Below are positions 20,265 through 59,592 of a stretch of 64,000 nucleotides of DNA, piece by piece. The DNA comes from an uncultured Acidobacteriota bacterium (GTDB lineage: Bacteria; Acidobacteriota; Thermoanaerobaculia; UBA5066; Gp7-AA6). A model generated the notes under the pieces. That model was not told where the DNA came from. It did no database searches and saw only the letters and a list, made by a program, of their open reading frames with translations. The first letter of the stretch is position 1. Each line of letters begins with the position of its first letter. The DNA is taken from assembly GCA_963707935.1 (NCBI GenBank), contig CAVPRN010000002.1:176542-240541 (forward strand), written 5' to 3'. The position numbers and the translations under genes were made by a program.

Positions 20265-22345
20265 TGGGACGGTGGCCGGCGGCGCGAAACGCCGGCCACT
20301 CGCGCTCGGCCGACAAGAAAGCGTTCGCGGCGGCGCTGCTCGGCGGCGTTCTCCTCCCGGCGGCCGCCGGCGCCGTCACCGCCGCCGGCCGGGGCATCGA
20401 GCTCGAGTTCGACGCCCGGCTGCACAGCCGCGTCGTCGCCGTCCTGGACGGGAATCGGATCGAGCTCGGCCCCTTCTCCGCCTCCGAGACGGTGACGGCG
20501 GCCGGGGCCGAGCGGCTCGATTTCGAGCTCGTCGATCAGAGCGAGGAGGCCGTCTCGGATGCGATCGGGACCGGGCGCCGGCACCGGCTCGTCGGACGCG
20601 CGTCCGATCTCGAGAAGACAATCGAGATCACCTTCTACGACGACTGGCCGCAGGTGGCCGTGATGCAGTCGGTCTATTCGAACCGTGGGGACAAGCCGGT
20701 CGCGATCGAGGCGTGGACGCAGAATCTCTACGCGATCTCAGCCGCCGCCGGCGCCCCCGAGCCCGCGTTCTGGTCCTATCAGAGCGGCTCCTACGAGAAA
20801 CGACCCGATTGGGTGCTGCCGCTCCGCGTCGGCTTCCGGCAGGACAACTTCCAGGGGATGAACGCCGACGACTACGGTGGCGGGACGCCGGTCGCCGACG
20901 TCTGGAGGCGCGACGTCGGGCTGGCCGTGGGCCATCTCGAACTCGTGCCGAAGAGCGTCTCGCTGCCGGTCGCCCGGCCGACCCGGGACCGTGCGACGCT
21001 CGGGATCCGCGACGCCGTCGGGCGAACCCTCGCGCCGGGCGAGCGGCTGACGACGCTCCGGACCTTCGTCGCGGTCCACCGCGGCGATTACTTTCCGGCG
21101 CTCGTCGCCTACCGGCGGCTCATGCTGCGCCAGGGCGTGCGACTGCCGTCGGCGCCGCCCGCCGCCTTCGAGCCGATCTGGTGCGCGTGGGGCTACGGGC
21201 GAGAGTTCACGCCGGAACAGGTCCTGGCGACGATCCCGCTCGCGCAGAAGCTCGGCTTCGGCTGGGTCACGCTCGACGACGGCTGGCAGGTGGCCGAAGG
21301 CGACTGGACGCCGGTGCCGTCGAAGTTTCCGCGCGGCGACGCCGACATGAAGGCGTTCGTGGACCGCATCCACGCCGCCGGGATGCGAGCGCAGCTCTGG
21401 TGGACTCCGCTCGCGGCCGATCCGGGATCGCGGACCGCGCGAGACCACCCCGAGTGGCTGCTTCGCAATCGGGACGGCTCGACCCGGAAGATCAGCTGGT
21501 GGGACTCGTTCTACCTCTGCCCGGCGCTCGACGGCGTGCGCGACGACGCGCGGGCGTTCGTCCGCAAGGCGCTCGGCGAGTGGGGCTTCGACGGCCTGAA
21601 GATCGACGGCCAGCACCTGAACGGCGCGCCCCCCTGCTACGACGCCGCCCACGGGCACGCGTCGCCCGAGGACGCGCCGGAGGGCGTCCCCGGCTTCTTC
21701 CGCGCGATCTGGGACGAGGCCATCGCGACGCGCGCCGATGCGGTCGTCGAGATCTGCCCGTGCGGCACGGCCTACTCCTTCTTCACCCTGCCGTACCTGA
21801 ACATGACCGTCGCATCCGATCCGGAGAGCTCGTGGCAGGTGCGGTTGAAGGGCAAGACGCTGAAGGCCCTGCACGGGGACTCGATCGCCTATTTCGGCGA
21901 CCACGTCGAGCTCTCGACCGGCGGCGAGGATTTCGCCTCCACCTTCGGCGTCGGCGGCGTCGTGGGCACGAACTTCGCGTGGCCGGGAGCGCCGGGCAAG
22001 AAGGACAAGAAGCTCCTGCTCACCCCCGAGCGGGAGAAGAAGTGGGCCTTCTGGGTGAAGCTCTACCGGGAGAAGCGGCTCTCGGCGGGCGAGTATCTGG
22101 GCTCGCTGTACGACATCGGCTTCGACCGGCCCGAGACGCACGCGATCCGCAAGGGGGACGCCCTCTACTACGCCTTCTACGCCGGCCGCTTCGGCGGGAA
22201 AGTGGAGCTGCGCGGGCTCGAGAACCGGCGCTACCGCGTGCGCGACTACGAGACGGGCCGCGATCTCGGGTCCGTCGAGGGGCCGAAGGCGAGCCTCGCG
22301 CTCTCCTTCAAGCATCACCTGCTTCTGGAGGCACTGCCCGAGTAG
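20264..22345 (+). CDS. glycoside hydrolase, alpha-galactosidase / alpha-N-acetylgalactosaminidase-like (GH27/GH36 clan)
   Basis: ATG overlaps the TBDR stop (TGATG). Signal-like N-terminus. Motifs WCAWGYG, GFGWVTLDDGWQ and GLKIDGQH typical of melibiase-type TIM barrels. Confidence 0.7.
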   Translation: MGRWPAARNAGHSRSADKKAFAAALLGGVLLPAAAGAVTAAGRGIELEFDARLHSRVVAVLDGNRIELGPFSASETVTAAGAERLDFELVDQSEEAVSDAIGTGRRHRLVGRASDLEKTIEITFYDDWPQVAVMQSVYSNRGDKPVAIEAWTQNLYAISAAAGAPEPAFWSYQSGSYEKRPDWVLPLRVGFRQDNFQGMNADDYGGGTPVADVWRRDVGLAVGHLELVPKSVSLPVARPTRDRATLGIRDAVGRTLAPGERLTTLRTFVAVHRGDYFPALVAYRRLMLRQGVRLPSAPPAAFEPIWCAWGYGREFTPEQVLATIPLAQKLGFGWVTLDDGWQVAEGDWTPVPSKFPRGDADMKAFVDRIHAAGMRAQLWWTPLAADPGSRTARDHPEWLLRNRDGSTRKISWWDSFYLCPALDGVRDDARAFVRKALGEWGFDGLKIDGQHLNGAPPCYDAAHGHASPEDAPEGVPGFFRAIWDEAIATRADAVVEICPCGTAYSFFTLPYLNMTVASDPESSWQVRLKGKTLKALHGDSIAYFGDHVELSTGGEDFASTFGVGGVVGTNFAWPGAPGKKDKKLLLTPEREKKWAFWVKLYREKRLSAGEYLGSLYDIGFDRPETHAIRKGDALYYAFYAGRFGGKVELRGLENRRYRVRDYETGRDLGSVEGPKASLALSFKHHLLLEALPE

Positions 22346-22351
22346 CAGCGC

Positions 22352-22463
22352 CGCGGGAGCGCGCGCGCAGCTCGGGATCAGGCCAGCCGTCGAGCCCTTT
22401 TGGGCGAGCGGCCGGCCGGTGCGCCCGCGGGGCGCAGATCCCGAGCGAAGCGCGAGCGACGGA
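22352..22463 (+). repeat. structured intergenic repeat element, copy A (3' two-thirds only)
   Basis: Shares ..cgtcgagccc(c)tttgggcgagcgg..ccggtgcgcc..gcgcaga.cccgagc.aagc..gcgacgg with copies at 42016-42178 and 45815-45971. Confidence 0.75.
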
Positions 22464-24041
22464 TTAACCGACGCCGCGCGTCCGCCGCAGCTCGCAGCGA
22501 CCCGTCCGGCTCGAGCTTCTGCTGACAGGCCCAGCGGACCGGGTGGCGCGTGCCCTTGACCTCGAGCTCGGCCGAGAGCCGGAGCCCCTCCCACGCGGTC
22601 CCGTGCGGCAGCGGCAGCCGCGCCTGCCGGATCTTCCCCGGGATCGGCCAGCCGGGATCGAGGCCGCCGGCGACGAGGACCCTCCCTTCGCCGTCGCGGA
22701 CCGTGACGCGAAGGACGCCCGGGACGCCGGCGATGCCGTCGTTGGCGAAGCCGATCACGAGCCCGTTCTGGCCTTTCCCGTCGTAGGACCAGATCCACGA
22801 CGGGCGCACGCGGTAGCCGATCCGCCGGGCGATCTCGTCGATCTTCTCCGGATACTGCCGGTAGTAGCGGAGCACGTTCTCGGCTCTCTCGTTGTGCCAG
22901 TTCCAGAGCGACCAGTAGTTGGCACCGAGGTCGAGGACGTGGGCGATGGCGTTGTCGGTCGAGGTCACGCCCTCGTCGAGCTCGAGCGAGTCGGGCGTCC
23001 CGTCGGCCATCGAGACTTCGAGAATCGCGGCGACCCAGGGAGGCCGGTTGCTCAGCGCCTCGATCTGCTCGTTCTCGATGAAGACCGTGTCGGTCCGGAG
23101 CCAGTTGTGGCTGCGGATCGTGCGGTCCACGATCTCCGAGTTGCCGACGCGGCTCCAGTCGGGCTGCGTGTTCGTGACGAGCGGGGTCTTCTTCCAGTTC
23201 TCGAGCTGGACCTCGAACATGCGCACGAAGGTGCGCTCCGCGGTGGCGTCGTCCGGGAAGGGGTGATTCGTGAACGGCCACGTGTGCCCTTCGCCCCAGA
23301 AGCCGTACAGGAAGGTGTCGAGGTACTCGACCTGCGGGTTGCCGTCGAGCTCGGCCGCGAGCAGCGCGTTCAGCTCCCGGAAGGCCTCCTGGAAGAAGGG
23401 GTCGTCGTAGCGCGGCTCTTCGTAGAAGGCGGGCTGCCGCGCGCCCTCGCGTCCGCTCCGCTTCCACTCGCCCTGCAGATCGCACCATGGGGACGCGCTC
23501 GAGGACGAAATCCGGCAGCGCCGGCCCCGCGATGTCCGGGCTTCCCATCATCACGCGGAAGCCGACGCGCTTCCCGTACTGCTTCGCCGCGGCGAAGGTC
23601 GCCTTCCAGTAATCCTCGGGGTCGAGCCGGCCGGGCCTCTTCTGGAGCTCGCGCCAGGTCGGGCGCACGTAGAGCTTCTGCCCCAGAGGGATCCGCGCGA
23701 GCGCGTCGATCTCCTTCTCCATGTCGAGGCCGCGGAAGGTCGCGGCGCCGTAGTCCCCCGTGACATACGTGACGAGCCCCATGCCGTATCCCGGCACGAC
23801 CTCGCGCGAGGGAGTCGTCGCCATGACGACCTCGGAGCCGGGGAGCACTTCCTCCGGCGGGTACTGCGGGAACGGCCCCTGATTCAGCCGGTCCGGGACG
23901 GGAGGCGCCGTGCCCCAGTCGTAGCCGTCCCAGCGGTGCGCGGGGACGAACGCCGAAGCGGCGCGGGGCGCGGCCATCGGCGCCGGCTCCCGCCGCGCCG
24001 AGTCGAAAGAAGTCTCTCCGGTCCACGCCGCCTCCCCTCAC
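22378..24041 (-). CDS. TAT-exported hypothetical protein (possible glycoside-hydrolase-like), with at least 2 frameshifts
   Basis: Twin-arginine signal VDRRDFFRLGAAGAGA in one frame joins MAAPRAASAFVPAHRWDGYDWG.. (shift ~23978). A second shift at ~23497 (LERVP|WCDLQGEWKR) joins to the 282 aa C-terminal ORF. The low-complexity C-terminal tail overlaps repeat copy A and may not be coding. Confidence 0.45.
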
Positions 24042-34474: not shown

Positions 34475-34551
34475 GGGGCTGTAGCTCAGTTTGGGAGAGC
34501 GCCTGAATGGCATTCAGGAGGTCGCCAGTTCGATCCTGGTCAGCTCCACCA
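34475..34551 (+). tRNA. tRNA-Ala (anticodon GGC), CCA encoded
   Basis: Cloverleaf: acceptor GGGGCTG/CAGCTCC with the G3:U70 Ala identity pair, anticodon loop aTGGCAt, T-arm GTTCGATCC, 3' CCA. Confidence 0.9.
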
Positions 34552-34697
34552 ATGCCCCACGACGCTTCAAGACCCGGCACAAACAACTGCCGCGATCGGA
34601 CTGGATCGAGCCGGCGACCTCCGTGAGGGGCACGGGGGGCGCCACGCGCCCCCCGCCTGAGACGTTCGACGGAATCGTCACCCGAGCGAAGCGAGGC

Positions 34698-34727
34698 GTG
34701 ACGGTTCGATCCCGTTCAGCTCCACCA
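34698..34727 (+). repeat. duplicated tRNA 3' end (T-arm + acceptor + CCA), att-like fragment
   Basis: ggttcgatcccgttcagctccacca matches the tRNA-Ala 3' end (gttcgatcctggtcagctccacca), about 150 bp downstream. No complete tRNA folds here. Confidence 0.7.
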
Positions 34728-34820
34728 AGCACGTCGCTCCGCTCGATCGTGGACCTTCGCCGGCCGGTCTTCAGATAGCTCTGGCTTCGGATTGCTCACA
34801 TGTTCCGGCCGGCGAGCTGG

Positions 34821-34847
34821 CGCGAAGCCTGGTCGCGTTGCGAGCGC
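34821..34847 (-). repeat. inverted partial copy of the structured repeat element (outer stem only)
   Basis: gcgcgaagcctggtcgcgttgcgagcg is the reverse complement of the ..cgctcgcaacgcgaccaggtttcgcg.. arm of copies B and C. Confidence 0.5.
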
Positions 34848-35003
34848 GACGAAAGACCGAGGCGTCGCTCGAACTGACCGCGGTAAGCCTGTTTCGCGCA
34901 CCGCGCGCAATCTCCGCGAGGGCGGCGGAGAAAGTCCGCGCGCCGCGGACGAATTGACTTCAGGCCGGCAAGCGCGACACCTGGATCTTCGCGTCGGCGC
35001 GCG

Positions 35004-38532: not shown

Positions 38533-39120
38533 TCAGGCGAGCGCTATGAACGCCTTCGGATCGCTCCACTGCCCGCGCTCATAGAGGAACCGAACCGCCT
38601 TGTCCACGACGATCTGGCCGTCGTCGGGGGAGATCGCGATCTCGGCGCGCTCGAGCGGCCGGGGCGTCGGGCCCTCGAAGTTGATGCCCGAAATGTAGTA
38701 GCCCGACCCGTGGCAGGGGCACTTGAACTTGTTTTGCGCAGGGAGCCAGTTGGGCGTGCAGCCGAGATGCGTGCAGACGGCGATCAGCGCGTAGATCGAG
38801 TCGGTGTTACGCACGATCCAGACGCCGAACTTCTCCTTCCATCGCTCGTCCACGCCCATGCCGTAGCTCGACGGGTCGCCGGCTTTGAAGCGCGTCGGCG
38901 GCTCGAAGAGGACATTGGGGAAAAGGAAGCGGACCGTCGCGGCCAGCCCGGCGGCCGTGGCCGCGGCGAAGGCGATCCAGGCCAGGACCATCCACTTCAG
39001 AGCCGAGCGGCGGTCCATCGCGTCGGTCCGAGGGTCGGCCGTCCCGAGCACCCCCTCGGGAGAGGGCTCTGTCGGGCTCGAGCCGGTAGGCGTTTTCGGA
39101 ATCTCCGGGACGGCGCTCAC
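38533..39120 (-). CDS. Rieske [2Fe-2S] protein, copy 1 (orphan)
   Basis: TAT-like DRRSALKWM, CTHLGC...CPCHGS cluster boxes. About 85% identical at protein and DNA level to the Rieske gene at 51867-52466. Confidence 0.8.
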   Translation of the reverse strand: MSAVPEIPKTPTGSSPTEPSPEGVLGTADPRTDAMDRRSALKWMVLAWIAFAAATAAGLAATVRFLFPNVLFEPPTRFKAGDPSSYGMGVDERWKEKFGVWIVRNTDSIYALIAVCTHLGCTPNWLPAQNKFKCPCHGSGYYISGINFEGPTPRPLERAEIAISPDDGQIVVDKAVRFLYERGQWSDPKAFIALA

Positions 39121-41493: not shown

Positions 41494-41999
41494 TCGCCGC
41501 CGCCGGGCTCGCGCTCCTGCTCGGAGCCGCCGGCGCGCGGCCGACCGTCACGCCCGCCGCGGGCAAGGAGGCCGCCGTGTCCCGGACGAAGGACGAGGAA
41601 ACCATCCGCCGGACGTTCGCGGCCTTCACCGAGGCCGTGAGCCGCGAGGATTTCGAGGCCGTCCTCGACATGATCACCGACGACGCCGTGTTCTGGACCG
41701 CGAACTACCCCGCGATCACCGGCAAGGCTGCCCTCCGCGCCGCGTACGCCGGCCTCGCGGCGTACCGCGTCCGCCAGGAGTTCGAGATCGAGGAGCTGCA
41801 GGTCTGCGGCGACTGGGCCTTCGTGCGCGGCTACGAGAACTTCCGGCTGGACCCGAAAGACGGTGTGGGCGCGCCGATCGAGATCAAGCGGCGGCGCGCC
41901 CTCTCGATCCTGCGCCGGCAGGCCGACGGCTCGTGGAAGACCGCGCGCGGGATGACGAATTACGATGCGCCTCCGCCGCAGCCGCGACAAGACGAGTGA
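41490..41999 (+). CDS. SnoaL/NTF2-like (DUF4440-type) secreted protein
   Basis: ATGA overlap with the regulator. Signal peptide. ..FTEAVSREDFEAVLDMITDDAVFW.. and a C-terminal ..DGSWKTARGM.. pattern. Confidence 0.6.
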   Translation: MIAAAGLALLLGAAGARPTVTPAAGKEAAVSRTKDEETIRRTFAAFTEAVSREDFEAVLDMITDDAVFWTANYPAITGKAALRAAYAGLAAYRVRQEFEIEELQVCGDWAFVRGYENFRLDPKDGVGAPIEIKRRRALSILRRQADGSWKTARGMTNYDAPPPQPRQDE

Positions 42000-42015: not shown

Positions 42016-42178
42016 CCGCTCGCAACGCGACCAGGTTTCGCGACCTAAGGAGCGAAACGACTCGCGTTGCGGGAGCCGGAGCGCAGCAAGGGAATCGGCG
42101 AGCGGTCGAGCCCCTTTGGGCGAGCCGCTCGCCGGTGCGCCCCGCAGGGCGCAGATTCCCGAGCAAGCGAAGGCGACG
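42016..42178 (+). repeat. structured intergenic repeat element, copy B (full length)
   Basis: Nested hairpins: cgctcgcaacgcgacc...ggtttcgcg-N-cgaaacg...tcgcgttgcgggagc, then gagcccctttgggcgagc and ggtgcgcc ccgcag ggcgcag palindromes. Confidence 0.8.
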
Positions 42179-42179
42179 G

Positions 42180-42428
42180 TCAGTAGAAGTCGGAACAGGA
42201 GAGGTAGTAGCCGCAGGCCGGCTCCGGGCAGAGGAGCTTGCACTTCCTCTCGAGGAGCGTCGCGCCGCAGTTGGGGCAGACCCGTTCGGGGCGGTGCTCG
42301 GACGGCGTCTCCTCCGGCGGCCGGCTCGGCGCGGTCTCCCGAGCGCGAAGATCGGACGCGGGCTCGCTCACGGCTTCGGAGTCGGCGTCGGTGTCGCCGG
42401 GGGCGGCTCCGTCTTCGCGAGGAGCCAT
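42180..42428 (-). CDS. small zinc-ribbon protein (hypothetical)
   Basis: CPNCG...[13 protein letters not shown] four-Cys ribbon. Might be the C-terminal part of the upstream lipoprotein if an indel is present. Confidence 0.35.
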
Positions 42429-42596: not shown

Positions 42597-42855
42597 ATCT
42601 CTCCCCCTCCATGGAACGTTCGCCCGACAAAATTTGTCCGGAATGCCAACGAAACGCTGCCCGAACTTGACGCCGCTGCCGCCTTGCCCGGTCTCAAATC
42701 CTTGAGCCGCAACGATCGAGCGATCTCGACGAAGATGGTACGGCTCTTGATACTACACGACGTCAATTGAGAGTGCCGGCATGGGAGTTCCGGCAACGGG
42801 GGAAGCCGAAAGGCTTCCCCCGTTGTCTTTGTGGGCCGGTCTTCGGAAGCCCGCT

Positions 42856-44131
42856 TCACCTTCCCGCGGCCGCGGCCGCGACTCCGGCCGGCTCGTCGAT
42901 CCGATAGCGCTCGAGCGGGCCGAGCCGTTTCCTCTCTCCCGCCACCGTCAGGAGAAGCGAGTCGCCCCGGTCCTCCTCGGCGAGGATCCGAAATCCGGCG
43001 CGCGCGGCGGCGATGGCGCGGCCGTCGCCATACGGGATGCGGAGCCGCAGGCGTTCGCGCTCCGGCCGGATCCGCGAAGCGATCATCTGCTCGAGCTCCG
43101 CCACGCCGGCGCCCGTCTTCGCGGACACGCGCGCCGCGGAGGACGGCCCGAGCGCGCCCGGCAGGTCCCGCTTGTTCCAGACCGGCAGGATCCGCTCCTC
43201 CCCGACGGCGAGCTCGGCGAGGACCTCGGAGGAGACTTGCCGCTCCTCGTCGACCCGCGGCGGAGGAGGCGTCGAGCACGTGCAGGACGAGGTCCGCGTC
43301 GCGGATCTCGGCCAGCGTCGAGCGGAACGAGGCGACGAGGCCGGGCGGGAGCTTGCGCACGAAGCCGACCGTGTCGAGGAAGACGACGCCGCGGAGCTTG
43401 GGCGAAGCCGCCCGCGCCGCGCGCGAGTCGAGGGTCGCGAAGAGCCGGTCGGCGGCGTACTCCGACGCCCGCGTCAGCCGGTTGAAGAGCGTCGTCTTGC
43501 CGGCGTTCGTGTAGCCGGCGATCGCGACCTGGAAGAATTCTCTGCCGGCCGCGGCGGCGCACGTCGCGCGCCGTCTCGATCTTCGCGAGATCGCGGCGCA
43601 GCCGCGCGATCCGGTCGCGGATCCGGCGCCGGTCGAGCTCGAGCTTCTGCTCGCCCGCGCCGCCCCTCGCCCCGATTCCGCCGCGGAGTCCCGAGAGGCG
43701 ATCGTAGCGCCCGGCCAGGCGCGGCAGCAGGTACTGGAGCTGCGCGAGCTCGACCTGCGTTCGCGCCTCGCGCGTGCGGGCGTGCGAGGCGAAGACGTCG
43801 AGGATCAGGCCCGGGCGGTCGAGCACGCGCACGCCGTCCCAGGCGCGCTCGAGGTTGCGCGTCTGCGCGGGCGTCAGCTCCTCGTCGAAGACGACGAGCT
43901 TCGCGCCGTGCTCCTCGGCCGCGGCGCCGACCTCTTCGACCGATCCCTTCCCGATGAACGTGGCCGGATCCGGAGCCGCCCGCTCCTTGACGAAGCGCGC
44001 GACTTCGACGCCGCCCGCCGTGTCGAGCGAGCCGCTCGAGCTCGTCCAGGTGCTCCTCGGCCGCGGCGCGCGGCATCGACTCGGTTGGCGATCCCGACCA
44101 GGATCGCCTTTTCTCTCGGGGCCCGATTCAC
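42856..44131 (-). CDS. hflX: GTPase HflX, multiply frameshifted
   Basis: N-terminal HflX domain (..ERAILVGI.., ..LILDVFASHARTREARTQVELAQLQYLLPRL..). G-domain G1 IAGYTNAGKTTLFN, G3 DTVGFV, G4 NKRD, spread over three or more frames. Confidence 0.7.
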
Positions 44132-45050: not shown

Positions 45051-45203
45051 ATCGGGAGATCGGGGGATCGGGAGATCGGGCCATCGGCCTTAGCCGGCCT
45101 CGCAGCGCCGACGGCCAGAATGGATTACGCTCTCTCGATCATGATCCGTCAACGATGTCCCGATGATCCGATGATCCGATGATCCGATGACCCGATTCCG
45201 ATG
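45044..45203 (+). repeat. GATC-rich tandem repeats (GGGAGATCG x3-4; CCGATGAT x3-4) around a GGCC palindrome
   Basis: At least eight GATC sites in 160 bp directly upstream of the tlpA-like ATG at 45201. Confidence 0.8.
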
Positions 45204-45737
45204 AAGACCCGCACCTTCCTCCTCGTCGCCTTCGCCGCCGCGCTCGTCGCCGCGGCGACGGTCTTCGTGAAGTCGCTCGAGCCTCCGGCCTCCCCGTCGG
45301 GCTCGCTCGCGTTCCTCTCGGCCGCCCCGCACCTCCCGATCGCCGACCGCTCGGGGGCGAAAGTGGATCTCTCGAAGTTGAAGGGGAAGGTCGCGATCAT
45401 TCACTTCTGGGCGACCTGGTGCCCGCCCTGCGTCGAGGAGGTCCCCGCCCTCTCCCGATTCTGGGAGCGCTACCGCGGGCGCGACGACATCGCGCTCTAC
45501 GCGATCTCGGTGGACAAGGACTGGAAGACGATCGACGCGTTCAACACGAAGAACCCGAACACGCTGCCGCTCTACATCGATCCCGACGCGGCGACGGCCA
45601 AGCGCTTCGGAACGATCCAGTATCCGGAGACCTACATCGTCAATCGCAACGGGCGCGTTCTCGAGCGCGTGCCGGGCGCCGTGTCCTGGGACGATCCCGA
45701 GGTCCAGAAGCGGATCGAGCAGTTCCTCGCCTCGTAG
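45201..45737 (+). CDS. TlpA/ResA-like periplasmic thiol-disulfide oxidoreductase
   Basis: Signal anchor. WATWCPPC thioredoxin active site. Confidence 0.85.
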   Translation: MKTRTFLLVAFAAALVAAATVFVKSLEPPASPSGSLAFLSAAPHLPIADRSGAKVDLSKLKGKVAIIHFWATWCPPCVEEVPALSRFWERYRGRDDIALYAISVDKDWKTIDAFNTKNPNTLPLYIDPDAATAKRFGTIQYPETYIVNRNGRVLERVPGAVSWDDPEVQKRIEQFLAS

Positions 45738-45814
45738 CACGTCGCTCGCGCTTCGTGCTCGCGGGCCCAGAGACTTGCGAAGGGGATTTCAGTTTCCGTC
45801 GGACTGATCGTTAC

Positions 45815-45971
45815 GCTCGCAACGCGACCAAGGTTTGCGAGCTAACGAGCAAACCGACTCGCGTTGCGGGAGCCGGAGCGCAGCGAGGGTGTCAGGTCGG
45901 CCGTCGAGCCCCTTTGGGCGAGCGGACGGCCGGTGCGCGCAGCGCAGAACCCGAGCAAGCTACGGCGACGG
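45815..45971 (+). repeat. structured intergenic repeat element, copy C (full length)
   Basis: Collinear with copy B. The inner stem differs (ggtttgc/gcaaacc vs ggtttcgc/gcgaaac), a compensatory change that keeps the pairing. Confidence 0.8.
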
Positions 45972-46573
45972 AAACAGCATGTACGTCCCCACGTCGGCCC
46001 TCGCATAGCCGGGCTCGATCGTCCGCGGGAACGTCATCCCGAGGCGCCACGGCGCCATCCAGGACTCCCAGGTCGAAACCGCCCGGCCCCGGGTCATGCC
46101 GCCCGACCAATCGGGGGCAACGTCGGCCCCGAGCGAAGGATCCGTCTCCTCGACCAGCAGCACGAAACCGCCCGTCGCGATCCGCCGCAGCTCCTCGGCG
46201 ATCCTCCTCGCCGCATCGTCGGGCACGTGCTGGAGAACGGTGAAGCTCATCGCGAAATCGAATGCGCCGTCCTCCGCGGGGAGCTCCGCGAGGTCCGCGA
46301 TCCCGCTCCACTCGACTCCGGGCTGCAGGCGCCGCGCCTCCGCGAGGAGCGCGTCTTCGCGCTCGAACCCGACGACGCGGGCGGCGAACTCGGCGAGCAC
46401 GGGAGTGAGCCGGCCGTAGCCGCAGCCGACGTCCGCCGCGCGGCGGATCGGGCGCTCCCGGGCGGCCGTCTCGAGGCATCGGCGGACGTCCCTCTGCTCG
46501 AGGTAGTTGCGCAGGGCCGACGCCGCTCCCGAGATGTCCGAGACCTCGTCGAATCGCCAGGCGTGGCGGCTCA
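45960..46573 (-). CDS. class I SAM-dependent methyltransferase
   Basis: Motif I VGCGYGRL, post-I FDFAM. 204 aa. Confidence 0.8.
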
Positions 46574-46680
46574 TCGCTCTTCTCCCTCTCCCCCGCGGGA
46601 AGAGGGCCGGGGTGAGGGGGCTTCTTCTCCCTCTCCCCCGCGGGGAGAGGGCCGGGGGGAGGGGGGCTCCCTCATCAACC
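46574..46680 (+). repeat. two tandem ~48-bp units, each holding a perfect GC hairpin CCCTCTCCCCCGCGGGGAGAGGG
   Basis: cttctccctctcccccgcggg(a/g)agagggccgggg(t/g)gaggggg repeated twice, between the methyltransferase start and the cytochrome c stop. Confidence 0.85.
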
Positions 46681-49700: not shown

Positions 49701-49857
49701 AGACCCGCTGGATCGTCTTCCAGGGACGGGCGTAGTCCTCGATCACCATGCCGATGAAGATGACCGTCAGAACCGCGCCCGCCGCGAAGAAGACGCGGTT
49801 CAGCTTCGGGATGTCGTAGTGATGGTCGATCGGCTCGGCGGGGGGCTTTCTGGGCAT
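46774..49857 (-). CDS. large membrane-anchored multiheme cytochrome c of the bc-type complex, frameshifts ~49210 and ~47150
   Basis: N-terminal TM anchor and coiled coil (ORF 48832-49857). Then eight CxxCH motifs (CATCH, CTPCH, CYRCH, CWGCH, CFGCH, CFACH, CQGCH, CKQCH). C-terminus in ORF 46774-48789. Confidence 0.75.
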
Positions 49858-49953
49858 AGCTATCAGCTGTCAGCTATCAGCTCTCAGCTTTCAGCCGGAA
49901 CTGGATCTCGTCTCTCTGGCTGACGGCTGATCGCTGACAGCTGAAAGCTCTTC
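49858..49953 (+). repeat. palindromic array of AGCTNTC heptamers (5 tandem + inverted arm)
   Basis: agctatcagctgtcagctatcagctctcagctttcagc ... gctgacggctgatcgctgacagctgaaagct: about a 33-bp imperfect stem in the cytochrome b - cytochrome c intergenic spacer. Confidence 0.85.
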
Positions 49954-51032
49954 TCATATGTTGAACGAGAACTCCGGGATGTTCACGATGTACTTCAAAT
50001 TGAAGATCCAACGCAGATACATCTTGATCGGCAGCGCCATCATCGTCAGCACGAGCGTGACGCCGAGCATGTACCGGGCCATCCCCATCTTCTCGAAGAA
50101 GCCGCGCAGGAGCGTCTTCGAGAAGAGGAGCGGCAGCGCGACGATGTAGAAGCCGCAGATCGCGAGGCCGACGATCTCGCGCACGAGCCAGAAGTTCGGC
50201 ATCGGGCGCTTCAACATCCGGATCCAGATGACCTCCGACAGGTTGATGTTGTTGAGCGGCACCAGTTTGTTCACGTCCCAGAACTCGTAGGGTCCGAAGA
50301 AGTTCCAGTTGGGGCCCCGCAGGAACGTGCCGAGCACGATGAGCGTGCACCAGAGCACGATGAACCCGAGGAGAAAGAGCGTGATTTCCGTCTTGCGCTC
50401 GCGGAAGGTGAAGTAGCCGTTCCCCCTGGGATTGGTGTCCATGTAGGGGATCGCCATGAGCCCGACGATGATGAGCGACGGCAGCACGACGCCGGCGAGC
50501 CACGGGTCGAAGTAGACGAGCATCTCCTGGAGCCCCAGGAAGTACCAGGGGGCCTTCGCCGGATTCGGCGAGTCGGTCGGATTGGCGGGCTCCTCGAGCG
50601 GCGCCTTCAGGAAGATCGACCAGATGATCATCACCGCCGTGACGAGCGTCAGGCAGATCAGCTCGACGTACACGAGGTCGGGCCAGGAGAAGACCTTCTG
50701 GGCGGAGTCCTCCCCCTCGATCGTCGGCAGTCCCGCGGCGAGACGCCGGTCGTTCTCGTACGCCTGATTGAGCGCGAACCAGAAGAAGAACCCGACGAGG
50801 AAGATCATCCCGACGATAGGGACGTTGTCCGGCAGCGTCGCGACCTTGTTGAAGTTGGGGTCGATGTACGAGAGGCCGATGCCGCCCGCGACGAGGGCGA
50901 GGAGCGCGAGCCCCCCTTCTTCGTCCAGAGCGGACGCCACCGGATGCCGACGAGCAGCAGCACCAGCATCAGCGTGACGAGGTACTGCGGCGCCGAAATG
51001 AAGTTGATGAAGGACTTGAGGAGGTTGATCAC
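49954..51032 (-). CDS. cytochrome b C-terminal / b6f subunit-IV-like protein (split cytochrome b), frameshift near N-terminus
   Basis: PWYFLGLQEML (PEWY-box region). Multi-TM. N-terminal TM in ORF 50805-51032. Confidence 0.8.
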
Positions 51033-51866: not shown

Positions 51867-52466
51867 TCACGTCAGCTTGACGAACGCCTTCGCGTCGGAC
51901 CACTGTCCCCGCTCGTAGAGGTATCGGGTCGCCTTGTCCACGACGATCTGCCCGTCGTCGGGCGAGACCGTGATTTCGGCCCGCTCGAGCGGCCGCGGCG
52001 CCGGGCCTTCGAAGTTGATGCCCGAAACGTAGTAGCCCGAACCGTGGCAGGGGCACTTGAACTTGTTCTGCGCCGGCAGCCAGTTGGGCGTGCAGCCCAG
52101 GTGGACGCAGACAGCCACGAGAGCGTAGATCGAGTCGGTGTTGCGGACGATCCACACCCCGTATTTCTCCTTCCACCGCTCGTCCACCCCCGGCGCGTAG
52201 GTGGACGGGTCCCCCGCCTTGAAGCGGGTCGGGGGCTCGAAGAGGACGTTGGGAAAGAGGAAACGCACGGTCGCCGTCAGCCCCGCCGCGGTCGCGGCGG
52301 CGAAGCCGACCCACGCGAGCGCCATCCATTTGAGGGCGGAGCGCCGCGTCACCCCGTCCGGGGTGACGTCGGCATCGGGCGGCGGCTCGATCTGTCGCTC
52401 GGGAGTCGACATCCCTGGGGAAGGGAGCCTATCAGACGGTCCGGCGCCGCTCAAGCCGCGGCGCAC
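51867..52466 (-). CDS. Rieske [2Fe-2S] protein, copy 2 (in bc operon)
   Basis: TAT-like TRRSALKWM. CVHLGC...CPCHGS. Start may be the internal MSTPERQ (52412). Confidence 0.85.
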   Translation of the reverse strand: MRRGLSGAGPSDRLPSPGMSTPERQIEPPPDADVTPDGVTRRSALKWMALAWVGFAAATAAGLTATVRFLFPNVLFEPPTRFKAGDPSTYAPGVDERWKEKYGVWIVRNTDSIYALVAVCVHLGCTPNWLPAQNKFKCPCHGSGYYVSGINFEGPAPRPLERAEITVSPDDGQIVVDKATRYLYERGQWSDAKAFVKLT

Positions 52467-59379: not shown

Positions 59380-59592
59380 CTCGCCGCTCATTCTACCGCC
59401 CGCGGCATGGCACTTGGGTGGACTGTCGGCCGCGGCGGTCGCTTCGCGACCGGCGGCCGAGAGGTCTAGCCGTCCACGGCTCCGGCCGGTCAAGCCAGGT
59501 AGGCCAGTGCGAATCCGATCTGCGCGTCAGGCCGCGGCGGTCGCTCCGCGACCGGCGGCCGAGAGGTCGAGCTCACCGTGGCGACTGATCCA
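59380..59592 (+). repeat. ~105-bp tandem duplication carrying palindromic terminator-like hairpins and a degenerate copy of the last 11 codons of the downstream UbiA-family gene
   Basis: cggccgcggcggtcgc(t)tcgcgaccggcggccgagaggtc occurs twice (59427, 59531). tcaagccaggtaggccagtgcgaatccgatctg mimics the gene tail tcagaccagatacgccagcgcgaagcccat. Confidence 0.75.

Follow-up and report, generated by a model that had tools for sequence, protein, structure and literature searches.

REP, BIME and REPIN sequences are described as short non-coding extragenic repeats that occur in high copy number at gene ends and form hairpins, with mosaic and tandem arrangements, inverted doublets, decayed singlets, long vertical persistence and possible effects on 3′ UTRs (PMC2817692, PMC3337134, PMC3116915, 10.1101/2022.05.22.493013, 10.64898/2026.03.23.713779). 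A folded repeat of ~165 nt was found in a 64-kb stretch of Thermoanaerobaculia DNA, the whole of which is called the window here. It resembles REP and BIME sequences in being high-copy, extragenic, mosaic or tandem in arrangement and located at gene ends, and in the broad sense it belongs among them. REPs carry a conserved 5′ GTAG. In contrast, the present repeat has no conserved 5′ GTAG, which occurs only in some variants of its first hairpin (P1); it is a branched unit of five helices instead of REP's palindrome of 20-40 nt, and one of its ends is anchored at stop codons. The two arms of a REPIN, an inverted doublet, form one hairpin and move together, whereas the minus/plus pairs of the ~165-nt repeat are independent copies.

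Bacterial MITEs (Correia, ERIC, RUP) are non-autonomous elements of 100-200 nt that are structured when transcribed, lie near gene ends and can alter the 3′ ends of ORFs. The present repeat is likewise non-autonomous, structured, close to gene ends and able to change ORF 3′ ends, but it has no terminal inverted repeats beyond TCGC/GCGA and no TA or other target duplication, and its two ends are strongly asymmetric. The ends of IS200/IS605 elements and their ORF-less derivatives (PATEs) have neither inverted repeats nor duplications and carry subterminal hairpins on one strand, with a short A/T-rich target at one end. One-ended anchoring without inverted repeats or duplications is also seen in the ~165-nt repeat. 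Its "target," however, is any stop codon, with a bias toward TAA, and not a fixed motif of 4-5 nt; its better-folding strand has this target 3′ and not 5′; and no TnpA or TnpB was found, the test for TnpA in the loci around the copies being a weak one. Integron attC sites preserve structure rather than sequence, follow directly on ORF stops and recombine through the strand antisense to the ORF. The present repeat differs from these in having no core sites, in being branched and in being dispersed outside cassette arrays, and it differs from non-LTR or SINE-like retroelements in lacking target duplications and a 3′ priming tail.

The window holds three collinear copies of the repeat on its plus strand: copy A at 22348-22462, copy B at 42016-42179 and copy C at 45814-45971. 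Each was recognized from its sequence, its fold and a covariance model derived from relatives, which gave 140.8 bits for B, 123.4 bits for C and 91.7 bits for A and nothing above 23 bits in the rest of the window. B and C are full length and share 89% identity across their first 76 nt, and an ungapped block of 79 nt is common to all three copies at 63-80% identity. The 21-nt core motif, GTCGAGCCCYTTTGGGCGAGC, has three exact occurrences in the window against 0.02 expected. Measured against dinucleotide shuffles, fold stability reaches a z of -6.6 in B, -3.9 in C and -3.1 in A. The inner stem reads GGTTTCGC/GCGAAAC in B and GGTTTGC/GCAAACC in C and forms a helix of 7 bp in each.

In a scan of species-representative genomes, at least 115 stretches in at least 30 Thermoanaerobaculia/Acidobacteriota MAGs carried the core motif. 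There were often several matches per genome, some of them in tandem, and all listed matches fell in such MAGs; none of the viral contigs scanned carries the motif. A covariance model built from 65 copies found 171 copies, of which 147 lie in the first 100 loci and 24 were added by a second search. The latter covered the remaining motif-selected loci, which held 22 of the 24 new copies, and 46 TlpA orthologous loci. When the window was compared with Rfam (4227 families), the tRNA alone reached its gathering threshold, and at relaxed thresholds the best match (E = 0.94; 15.6 bits, where the gathering score is 56) was noise. No paper connecting Thermoanaerobaculia with such repeats was found in the literature. 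The ~165-nt folded repeat is a large, undescribed family that is specific to the Thermoanaerobaculia (Acidobacteriota).

The unit is non-coding and extends over ~160-165 nt, from GYTCGCGG... to ...GCGACGG. It opens with the long hairpin P1 (CGCGGCGCG.../...CGCGCCGCG), which contains a variable inner hairpin, P1b, and is followed by the junction GGGAGCCGGAGCG. P2 (GGGATC/GATCCC) encloses P3 and P5. P3 (GGCGNNCGG/CCGNNCGCC) has an invariant internal loop, UCGA/GA, and bears the P4 hairpin GCCC-CTTT-GGGC, while P5 is a variable hairpin, often with a C-GNA-G triloop and sometimes with an insert of 50-70 nt. The unit closes with the tail GAGCGAAGCGGAGGCGACGG. All of these parts are present in copy B, where P2 surrounds P3/P4 (core GTCGAGCCCCTTTGGGCGAGC) and P5 and the tail runs to ...AAGGCGACGG.

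All helices covary, and the structure is strongly supported. In a MAFFT alignment, compensatory changes were observed in 23 of the 39 predicted pairs. The alignment of 147 copies was fitted to the model and is hence biased toward the structure, a bias from which the MAFFT result is free; in it, 95.9% of the cells are paired, compared with 34-48% when partners are slid, double changes occur in 34 of 39 pairs and none of 500 shuffles reaches the observed value on any measure. The nucleotides of the UCGA/GA internal loop are fixed while P4 covaries. The helices also distinguish the two strands. On the plus strand as written, G.U pairs outnumber A.C pairs (71 versus 40), and three further columns are near-invariant U.G. 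Fold stabilities lie between -89 and -100 kcal/mol, and in 100 of 104 copies the plus strand has the more stable fold, with a mean difference from its complement of -10.7 kcal/mol. With composition controlled, z is -6.15 for the plus strand and -4.57 for the complement, the plus strand being better in 24 of 28 copies (p ~8e-6). These tests point to the plus strand as written as the one that folds, be it as RNA or as single-stranded DNA.

These results bear on an earlier account of the window, referred to here as the sequence-only reading, which had described a novel structured element without a conserved ORF and under selection on RNA or DNA structure. That interpretation is supported by more than 100 copies with massive structure-preserving variation. 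The copies of the window are not the only ones, as the covariance-model search it had proposed leads to a family of well over a hundred, and the comparison with Rfam gave no match to any family. The word "novel" applies to the family or variant but not to its category: because it is multicopy and modular, has truncated and tandem forms and is gained and lost between relatives, the repeat behaves as a member of the dispersed REP/BIME/MITE class.

Copies that are 90-95% identical and lie in unrelated loci align solely from the base of P1 (GYTCGC) to GCGACG(G), with unrelated flanks. Since the similarity of close copies stops at the helix bases, the unit has sharp boundaries. Terminal inverted repeats are lacking: all that GYTCGC... 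at one end has in common with ...GCGACGG at the other is TCGC/GCGA. No peak of TA was observed at the 5′ boundary, and k-mers shared between flanks were not above the shuffled control, tandem arrays excepted; insertion of the TA-target or Tc1-like kind with duplication was ruled out on these grounds. A conserved 5′ extension or promoter was likewise rejected, the candidate sequences (GAGCGGCACTG, TCTCGAA... and GAGGCGT heptamers) being subfamily-specific or belonging to other modules and not common to close copies. Arrays of the GAGGCGT heptamer and a shared leader of ~60 nt stand beside one subfamily (L018, L100, L071, L015 and L093), either 5′ or 3′ of the copies, and form BIME-like mosaics.

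The 3′ end behaves differently from the 5′ end, at which no comparable anchoring to gene ends was seen. In 64 of 142 copies, a reverse-complement stop codon stands directly after GCGACG(G) (offsets 4-6), compared with a background of 1.2% per position. A crude gene finder using third-position G+C gave false positives on antisense frames, and the junction counts use a stricter test that requires a coding frame, judged by third-position G+C across the next 300 nt. By this test, 67 copies have a convergent gene at the 3′ end; its stop lies 0-3 nt from GCGACG in 53 of them, the gene reads 2-85 nt into the element in 13 and a gap of 7 nt separates the two in the remaining one. The 53 flush stops are TAA in 58%, TAG in 25% and TGA in 17% of cases (59%, 26% and 15% of the 61 flush stops in a looser count), against 12%, 34% and 55%, respectively, for stops in the same loci overall. 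Some copies abut reverse-complement tRNA 3′ ends instead, with 2-5 nt between. The GCGACGG end adjoins either an opposite-strand stop, within 0-3 nt and with the preference TAA > TAG > TGA, or the 3′ end of a tRNA. No motif beyond the stop codon was found at this junction.

Several simple accounts of the junction were considered. The spacer between convergent genes often measures -4 to 36 nt and elements fill entire spacers, but to regard flush junctions as a by-product of tiny spacers leaves the 3′/5′ asymmetry and the TAA excess unexplained. Copies next to ftsZ follow a native-looking C-terminus, ...DIPTVLRRQMD and the stop, which indicates that they sit past the true stop and do not truncate the protein. 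Insertion within ORFs, with the element supplying the stop, was rejected as the main route in view of this native end and of the 13 in 67 copies that genes read into. Inverted neighbouring copies are always arranged head to head, with their tails outward to the two convergent stops. Their arms are just 74-82% identical, no closer than unrelated copies, and thus represent separate, independent copies; on this ground, the idea that such pairs move as a unit, of which single copies would be decayed halves, was rejected as a general rule.

The copies of the window illustrate these junctions. Copy B starts 16 nt past the TGA (41997-41999) of a DUF4440/SnoaL gene, and at its 3′ end it directly abuts the TGA (reverse complement TCA, 42180-42182) of a small minus-strand ORF at 42180-42428. 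A convergent methyltransferase gene (45960-46574, minus strand) terminates within the tail of copy C, where CTACGGCGACGG encodes the final PSP and stop. The window protein thereby ends in YMLFPSP, whereas its homologues in relatives end in YMLF plus 2-3 other residues. Copy A is a 5′-truncated unit that begins in the 3′ arm of P1 (GCGCCGCGGGAGC), 2 nt past the TAG (22343-22345) of a large plus-strand gene. The minus-strand gene 22378-23547 extends 84 nt into it and uses as its stop the conserved TGA of the element (reverse complement of GATCAGG). The genes flanking B and C are ordinary ones (DUF4440/SnoaL, AhpC/TSA-type thioredoxin-like and methyltransferase), and exact-protein look-ups of window genes gave no match.

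Inverted material is also present. Positions 45738-45770 on the minus strand hold the 3′-tail remnant of an inverted copy, recognized from the sequence and from a weak covariance-model hit at 45739-45876 on that strand. The junction reads TAG, CA and CGTCGCTCGCGCTTC..., the remnant beginning 2 nt past the stop codon (45735-45737) with which the thioredoxin-like gene 45201-45737 ends, and a 15-nt stretch of the remnant is identical to the tail of copy A. A degenerate, rearranged copy at 34729-34850, also on the minus strand, was recognized from the sequence and from its intact counterpart in a near-identical strain, L198. An exact 16-mer lies at 34831-34846 on the minus strand, with 84% complementarity over 32 nt, and the tail of the copy (CACGTCGCTCCGCTCG) lies 2 nt past a 25-nt 3′ fragment of tRNA-Ala (34704-34728). 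In L198, the counterpart is a full copy flush with a whole tRNA-Ala; the fragment in the window is the stump of a further tRNA-Ala gene that is intact in that strain. A tail-like fragment on the other side of the stump (34681-34704, plus strand; CCCGAGCGAAGCGAGGCGTGACGG) has a 13-mer in common with the tail of copy A and, as read from the letters, is a probable remnant, so that element tails are found on both flanks of the stump. An intact tRNA-Ala(GGC) lies at 34475-34551, and the 25-nt copy of a tRNA 3′ end, 152 nt further on, is 92% identical.

The sequence-only reading had placed three collinear intergenic copies where they are found, with boundaries that are refined here, and the structure-preserving change it saw in the inner stem of B and C holds for both 7-bp helices. 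The inverted piece it located at 34821-34847 is real and is the P1 arm of the degenerate minus-strand copy, although the two inverted remnants were noted only in part. Its description of each copy as following a plus-strand gene and preceding a convergent one is correct for B and roughly so for C but does not hold for A, into which the minus-strand gene reads, and the sharper rule, that the 3′ end is anchored at the stop codon of the convergent gene, had escaped it.

Comparison with relatives shows that copies are gained and lost between close relatives. At the site of copy C, the element is absent at that position from all 46 orthologous metagenome loci of the thioredoxin-like gene. L120 has the same convergent methyltransferase there with a spacer of just 7 nt, and in relatives at 87-90% and 85% nucleotide identity, that spacer holds another repeat, CCCTCACCCC...GGGGAGAGGG, singly or in two copies. 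At the site of copy B, the copy is present in L198 (98.9% identity over 1210 nt) and absent in relatives at 77%, which instead have a GTAG-flanked, REPIN-like hairpin pair that holds an IS110 insertion in another sample. About 10 of the 13 differences between L198 and the window at this site lie inside the 167-nt element. Between these near-identical strains, the copy diverges at ~20-fold the rate of its flanks. The L198 metagenome contig ends 7 nt past copy B (L198 3524-3697), which is consistent with repeats breaking short-read or mixed assemblies. Retention was also observed: orthologous gene ends of different species, namely the ftsZ 3′ end (L053, L076 and L079) and five other groups, retain copies with different but compensated stems. 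Such retention may stem from selection at the locus, from gene conversion among copies or from targeting of the same sites more than once.

Two other repeat families were encountered. The second family consists of CCCTCACCCC-GCCCTCTCCCC-N4-6-GGGGAGAGGG hairpins and occurs at 46578-46665 of the window, at 1250-1302 of L196, at 3113-3208 of L197 and in L132, L133 and L065/L090. In the window, two tandem units of 43-45 nt upstream of the methyltransferase inflate an ORF with sequence of the PLSP/GRGR type, and in close relatives this family occupies the spacer that copy C holds in the window. The third family forms inverted doublets (GTAGGGGCGGGG...CCGCCCCTAC) with terminal GTAG/CTAC, in L199 (2215-2268), L200, L201 (2530-3560), L035, L053 and L151. 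These GTAG/CTAC doublets are the classic REP/REPIN signature. In L201, a gene for an IS110-family transposase is inserted exactly at the GTAG of this family; IS110 elements are known to target REPs, and the insertion matches that habit. The GTAG-flanked, REPIN-like family of related genomes is a better candidate for a RAYT partner than the ~165-nt repeat.

Further features of the window were recorded in passing. The hflX GTPase gene (~42750-44100, minus strand) appears split across three reading frames in the ORF lists, and its orthologue in L197 is called as a single gene; the split could reflect frameshifts of a long-read assembly or a pseudogene. Third-position G+C is unusually flat across 39-44 kb. 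An inverted repeat at 49851-49956 has 38-nt arms of heptamers of the CAGCT(A/G)T type, 82% complementary and separated by a 30-nt spacer, and it adjoins one of the few promoter-like matches (49934-49962). Two direct repeats of 43 nt (59428-59470 and 59530-59572) are 95% identical, lie 102 nt apart and are each internally palindromic (GGCCGCGGCGGTCGC...GCGACCGGCGGCC). A 300-nt direct repeat (38533-38832 and 51867-52166) has 84% identity; as its first copy lies within a gene for a Rieske-type iron-sulfur protein, it probably represents paralogous genes rather than a mobile repeat.

Taken as a whole, the ~165-nt repeat is best explained, with somewhat better than even confidence, as a non-coding, non-autonomous interspersed repeat family whose propagation depends on the conserved multi-helix fold of one strand. 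It fits the same kind as REP/BIME/REPIN sequences and MITEs, yet fails the defining features of each, namely the palindrome size and GTAG, the paired arms, the inverted repeats and the duplications.

A role in the transcript offers a different and rather unlikely account, in which the element is a cis-acting RNA kept at gene ends. Its plus strand would be transcribed as the far part of the 3′ UTR belonging to the co-oriented gene upstream and would serve as an insulator or non-canonical terminator, the fold stopping or stabilizing the transcript just before polymerase enters the convergent gene. The better folding of the plus strand, the exact coincidence of the element's 3′ end with the start of the convergent gene's territory, the fixed UCGA/GA loop beside a covarying P4 and the copies kept at orthologous sites across species are all in keeping with this. 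So is the scarcity of ordinary terminators: 30 hairpin-plus-U sites were counted at positions 1-60000 of the window against ~26 expected from shuffled sequence, which is chance level, and canonical intrinsic terminators seem rare in this genome. However, neither a sigma-70-like promoter nor a hairpin-plus-U site is present at B or C. One copy lies inside an operon, in antisense orientation, between the stop of a histidine kinase and the start of its response regulator, and others are directly upstream of gene starts; with the lack of a U-tract, these positions led to the rejection of an intrinsic (Rho-independent) terminator and indicate that the repeat is not a simple terminator. Copies beside tRNAs and in tandem arrays of truncated units, the decay of copy B at a rate far above that of its flanks, and sites B and C that are empty or filled by other repeats in relatives also speak against an RNA kept for its function at the gene end.

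The pattern of truncation brings to mind a SINE-like, non-autonomous retroelement, whose folded plus-strand RNA a reverse transcriptase would recognize and copy from its 3′ end at a nick past an A/T-rich site such as TAA. Among the 160 copies uncut by locus ends, 114 are full, 33 are truncated at the 5′ end with the 3′ end intact, 8 are truncated at the 3′ end and 5 at both. A fixed 3′ end with this excess of 5′ truncations, a plus-strand-specific fold with G.U pairs, a TAA-biased junction and the lack of terminal inverted repeats would all suit such a process. We nevertheless regard it as improbable: target-site duplications are no more frequent than in the shuffled control, a priming tail, A-rich or otherwise, is lacking, and no reverse transcriptase was noticed in an unsystematic look near the copies. 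The 5′ truncation points cluster in the loop and 3′ arm of P1 and at the start of P3, and the truncated units, of which copy A is one, form tandem arrays (for example, the 134-nt units in L070), for which unequal recombination is the simpler explanation.

Independently transcribed small RNA genes in many copies are a very improbable identity for the family. The unpaired regions are purine-rich, with repeated GGA/GGAGG motifs, and, like the conserved covarying structure that is absent from Rfam, they could be expected of such RNAs; but close copies resemble each other only as far as the bases of the helices, so that the unit brings no shared promoter or terminator with it. Neither a sigma-70-like promoter nor a U-tract is present at B or C, genes read into copies, and the family includes truncated units and arrays. 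An identity as integron attC-like sites, which recombine as folded single strands, is suggested by ends flush with stop codons, a folding strand antisense to the ORF and structure conserved over sequence. It is barely tenable, since a comparison of motifs and fold largely refuted that identity through missing RYYYAAC/GTTRRRY core sites and a branched two-domain fold in place of a single imperfect hairpin, and the copies are dispersed in both orientations beside housekeeping genes such as ftsZ, with no cassette arrays and no integrase noticed.

For the favored interpretation as a mobile, non-autonomous repeat, anchoring at one end only, a lack of both inverted repeats and duplications, the strand-specific fold and the bias toward 5′ truncation suggest a strand-specific process that recognizes the folded strand. 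Copies would spread by one-ended insertion that recognizes this strand, for which single-strand transposition of the HUH/Y1 type (IS200/IS605, REP-RAYT) is the nearest analogy. The process would join the GCGACGG end to A/T-containing sites, and in a very compact genome of 72% G+C, such sites would be little else than stop codons and gene ends. After its insertion, a copy would be co-transcribed with its neighbors as a 3′ UTR or intra-operon spacer, where its stable fold may, in the manner of REP elements, block exonucleases or polymerases. That the RNA acts as a barrier or insulator in the 3′ UTR is plausible as such a secondary effect, which would not be the reason for the family's existence, and less probable as the primary role.

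Some observations sit less easily with a mobile repeat. No RAYT or other mobilizing enzyme was hit by tblastn in the ~8-kb loci around the copies, a weak test with two queries, YafM and IS200 TnpA. It is the abutting gene's template strand that folds better, whereas under a lagging-strand model of single-stranded DNA the other strand would be the more natural expectation if genes and replication are co-oriented. Orthologous copies with intact, compensated stems could reflect selection at each locus rather than selfish spread, which would count against mobility, and the enrichment of TAA could stem from selection for a strong stop beside a structure rather than from target choice. More speculatively, and with only a modest chance of being right, the family may home to gene 3′ ends, either as a strand-specific mobile element whose machinery joins its GCGACGG end directly past stops (TAA preferred) and tRNA 3′ ends, or as a dedicated gene-end insulator, RNA or DNA, with a protein partner that reads the invariant UCGA/GA loop. 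If true, such homing or insulation would be a form of target choice or a gene-boundary element not described for bacterial repeats.

The Thermoanaerobaculia are abundant Acidobacteriota of soil and sediment and are almost without experimental genetics. For these organisms, the family supplies a structured motif of curated quality that is absent from Rfam, with more than 170 sequences and near-complete covariation. It also carries a practical warning, as the repeats break assemblies and create spurious ORFs. The positional rule, 0-3 nt from a stop with a five-fold excess of TAA, makes the site choice of a bacterial repeat directly testable. Finally, the repeats remodel the C-termini of proteins: in two of the three window copies, a neighboring gene takes its final codons or its stop from the repeat.
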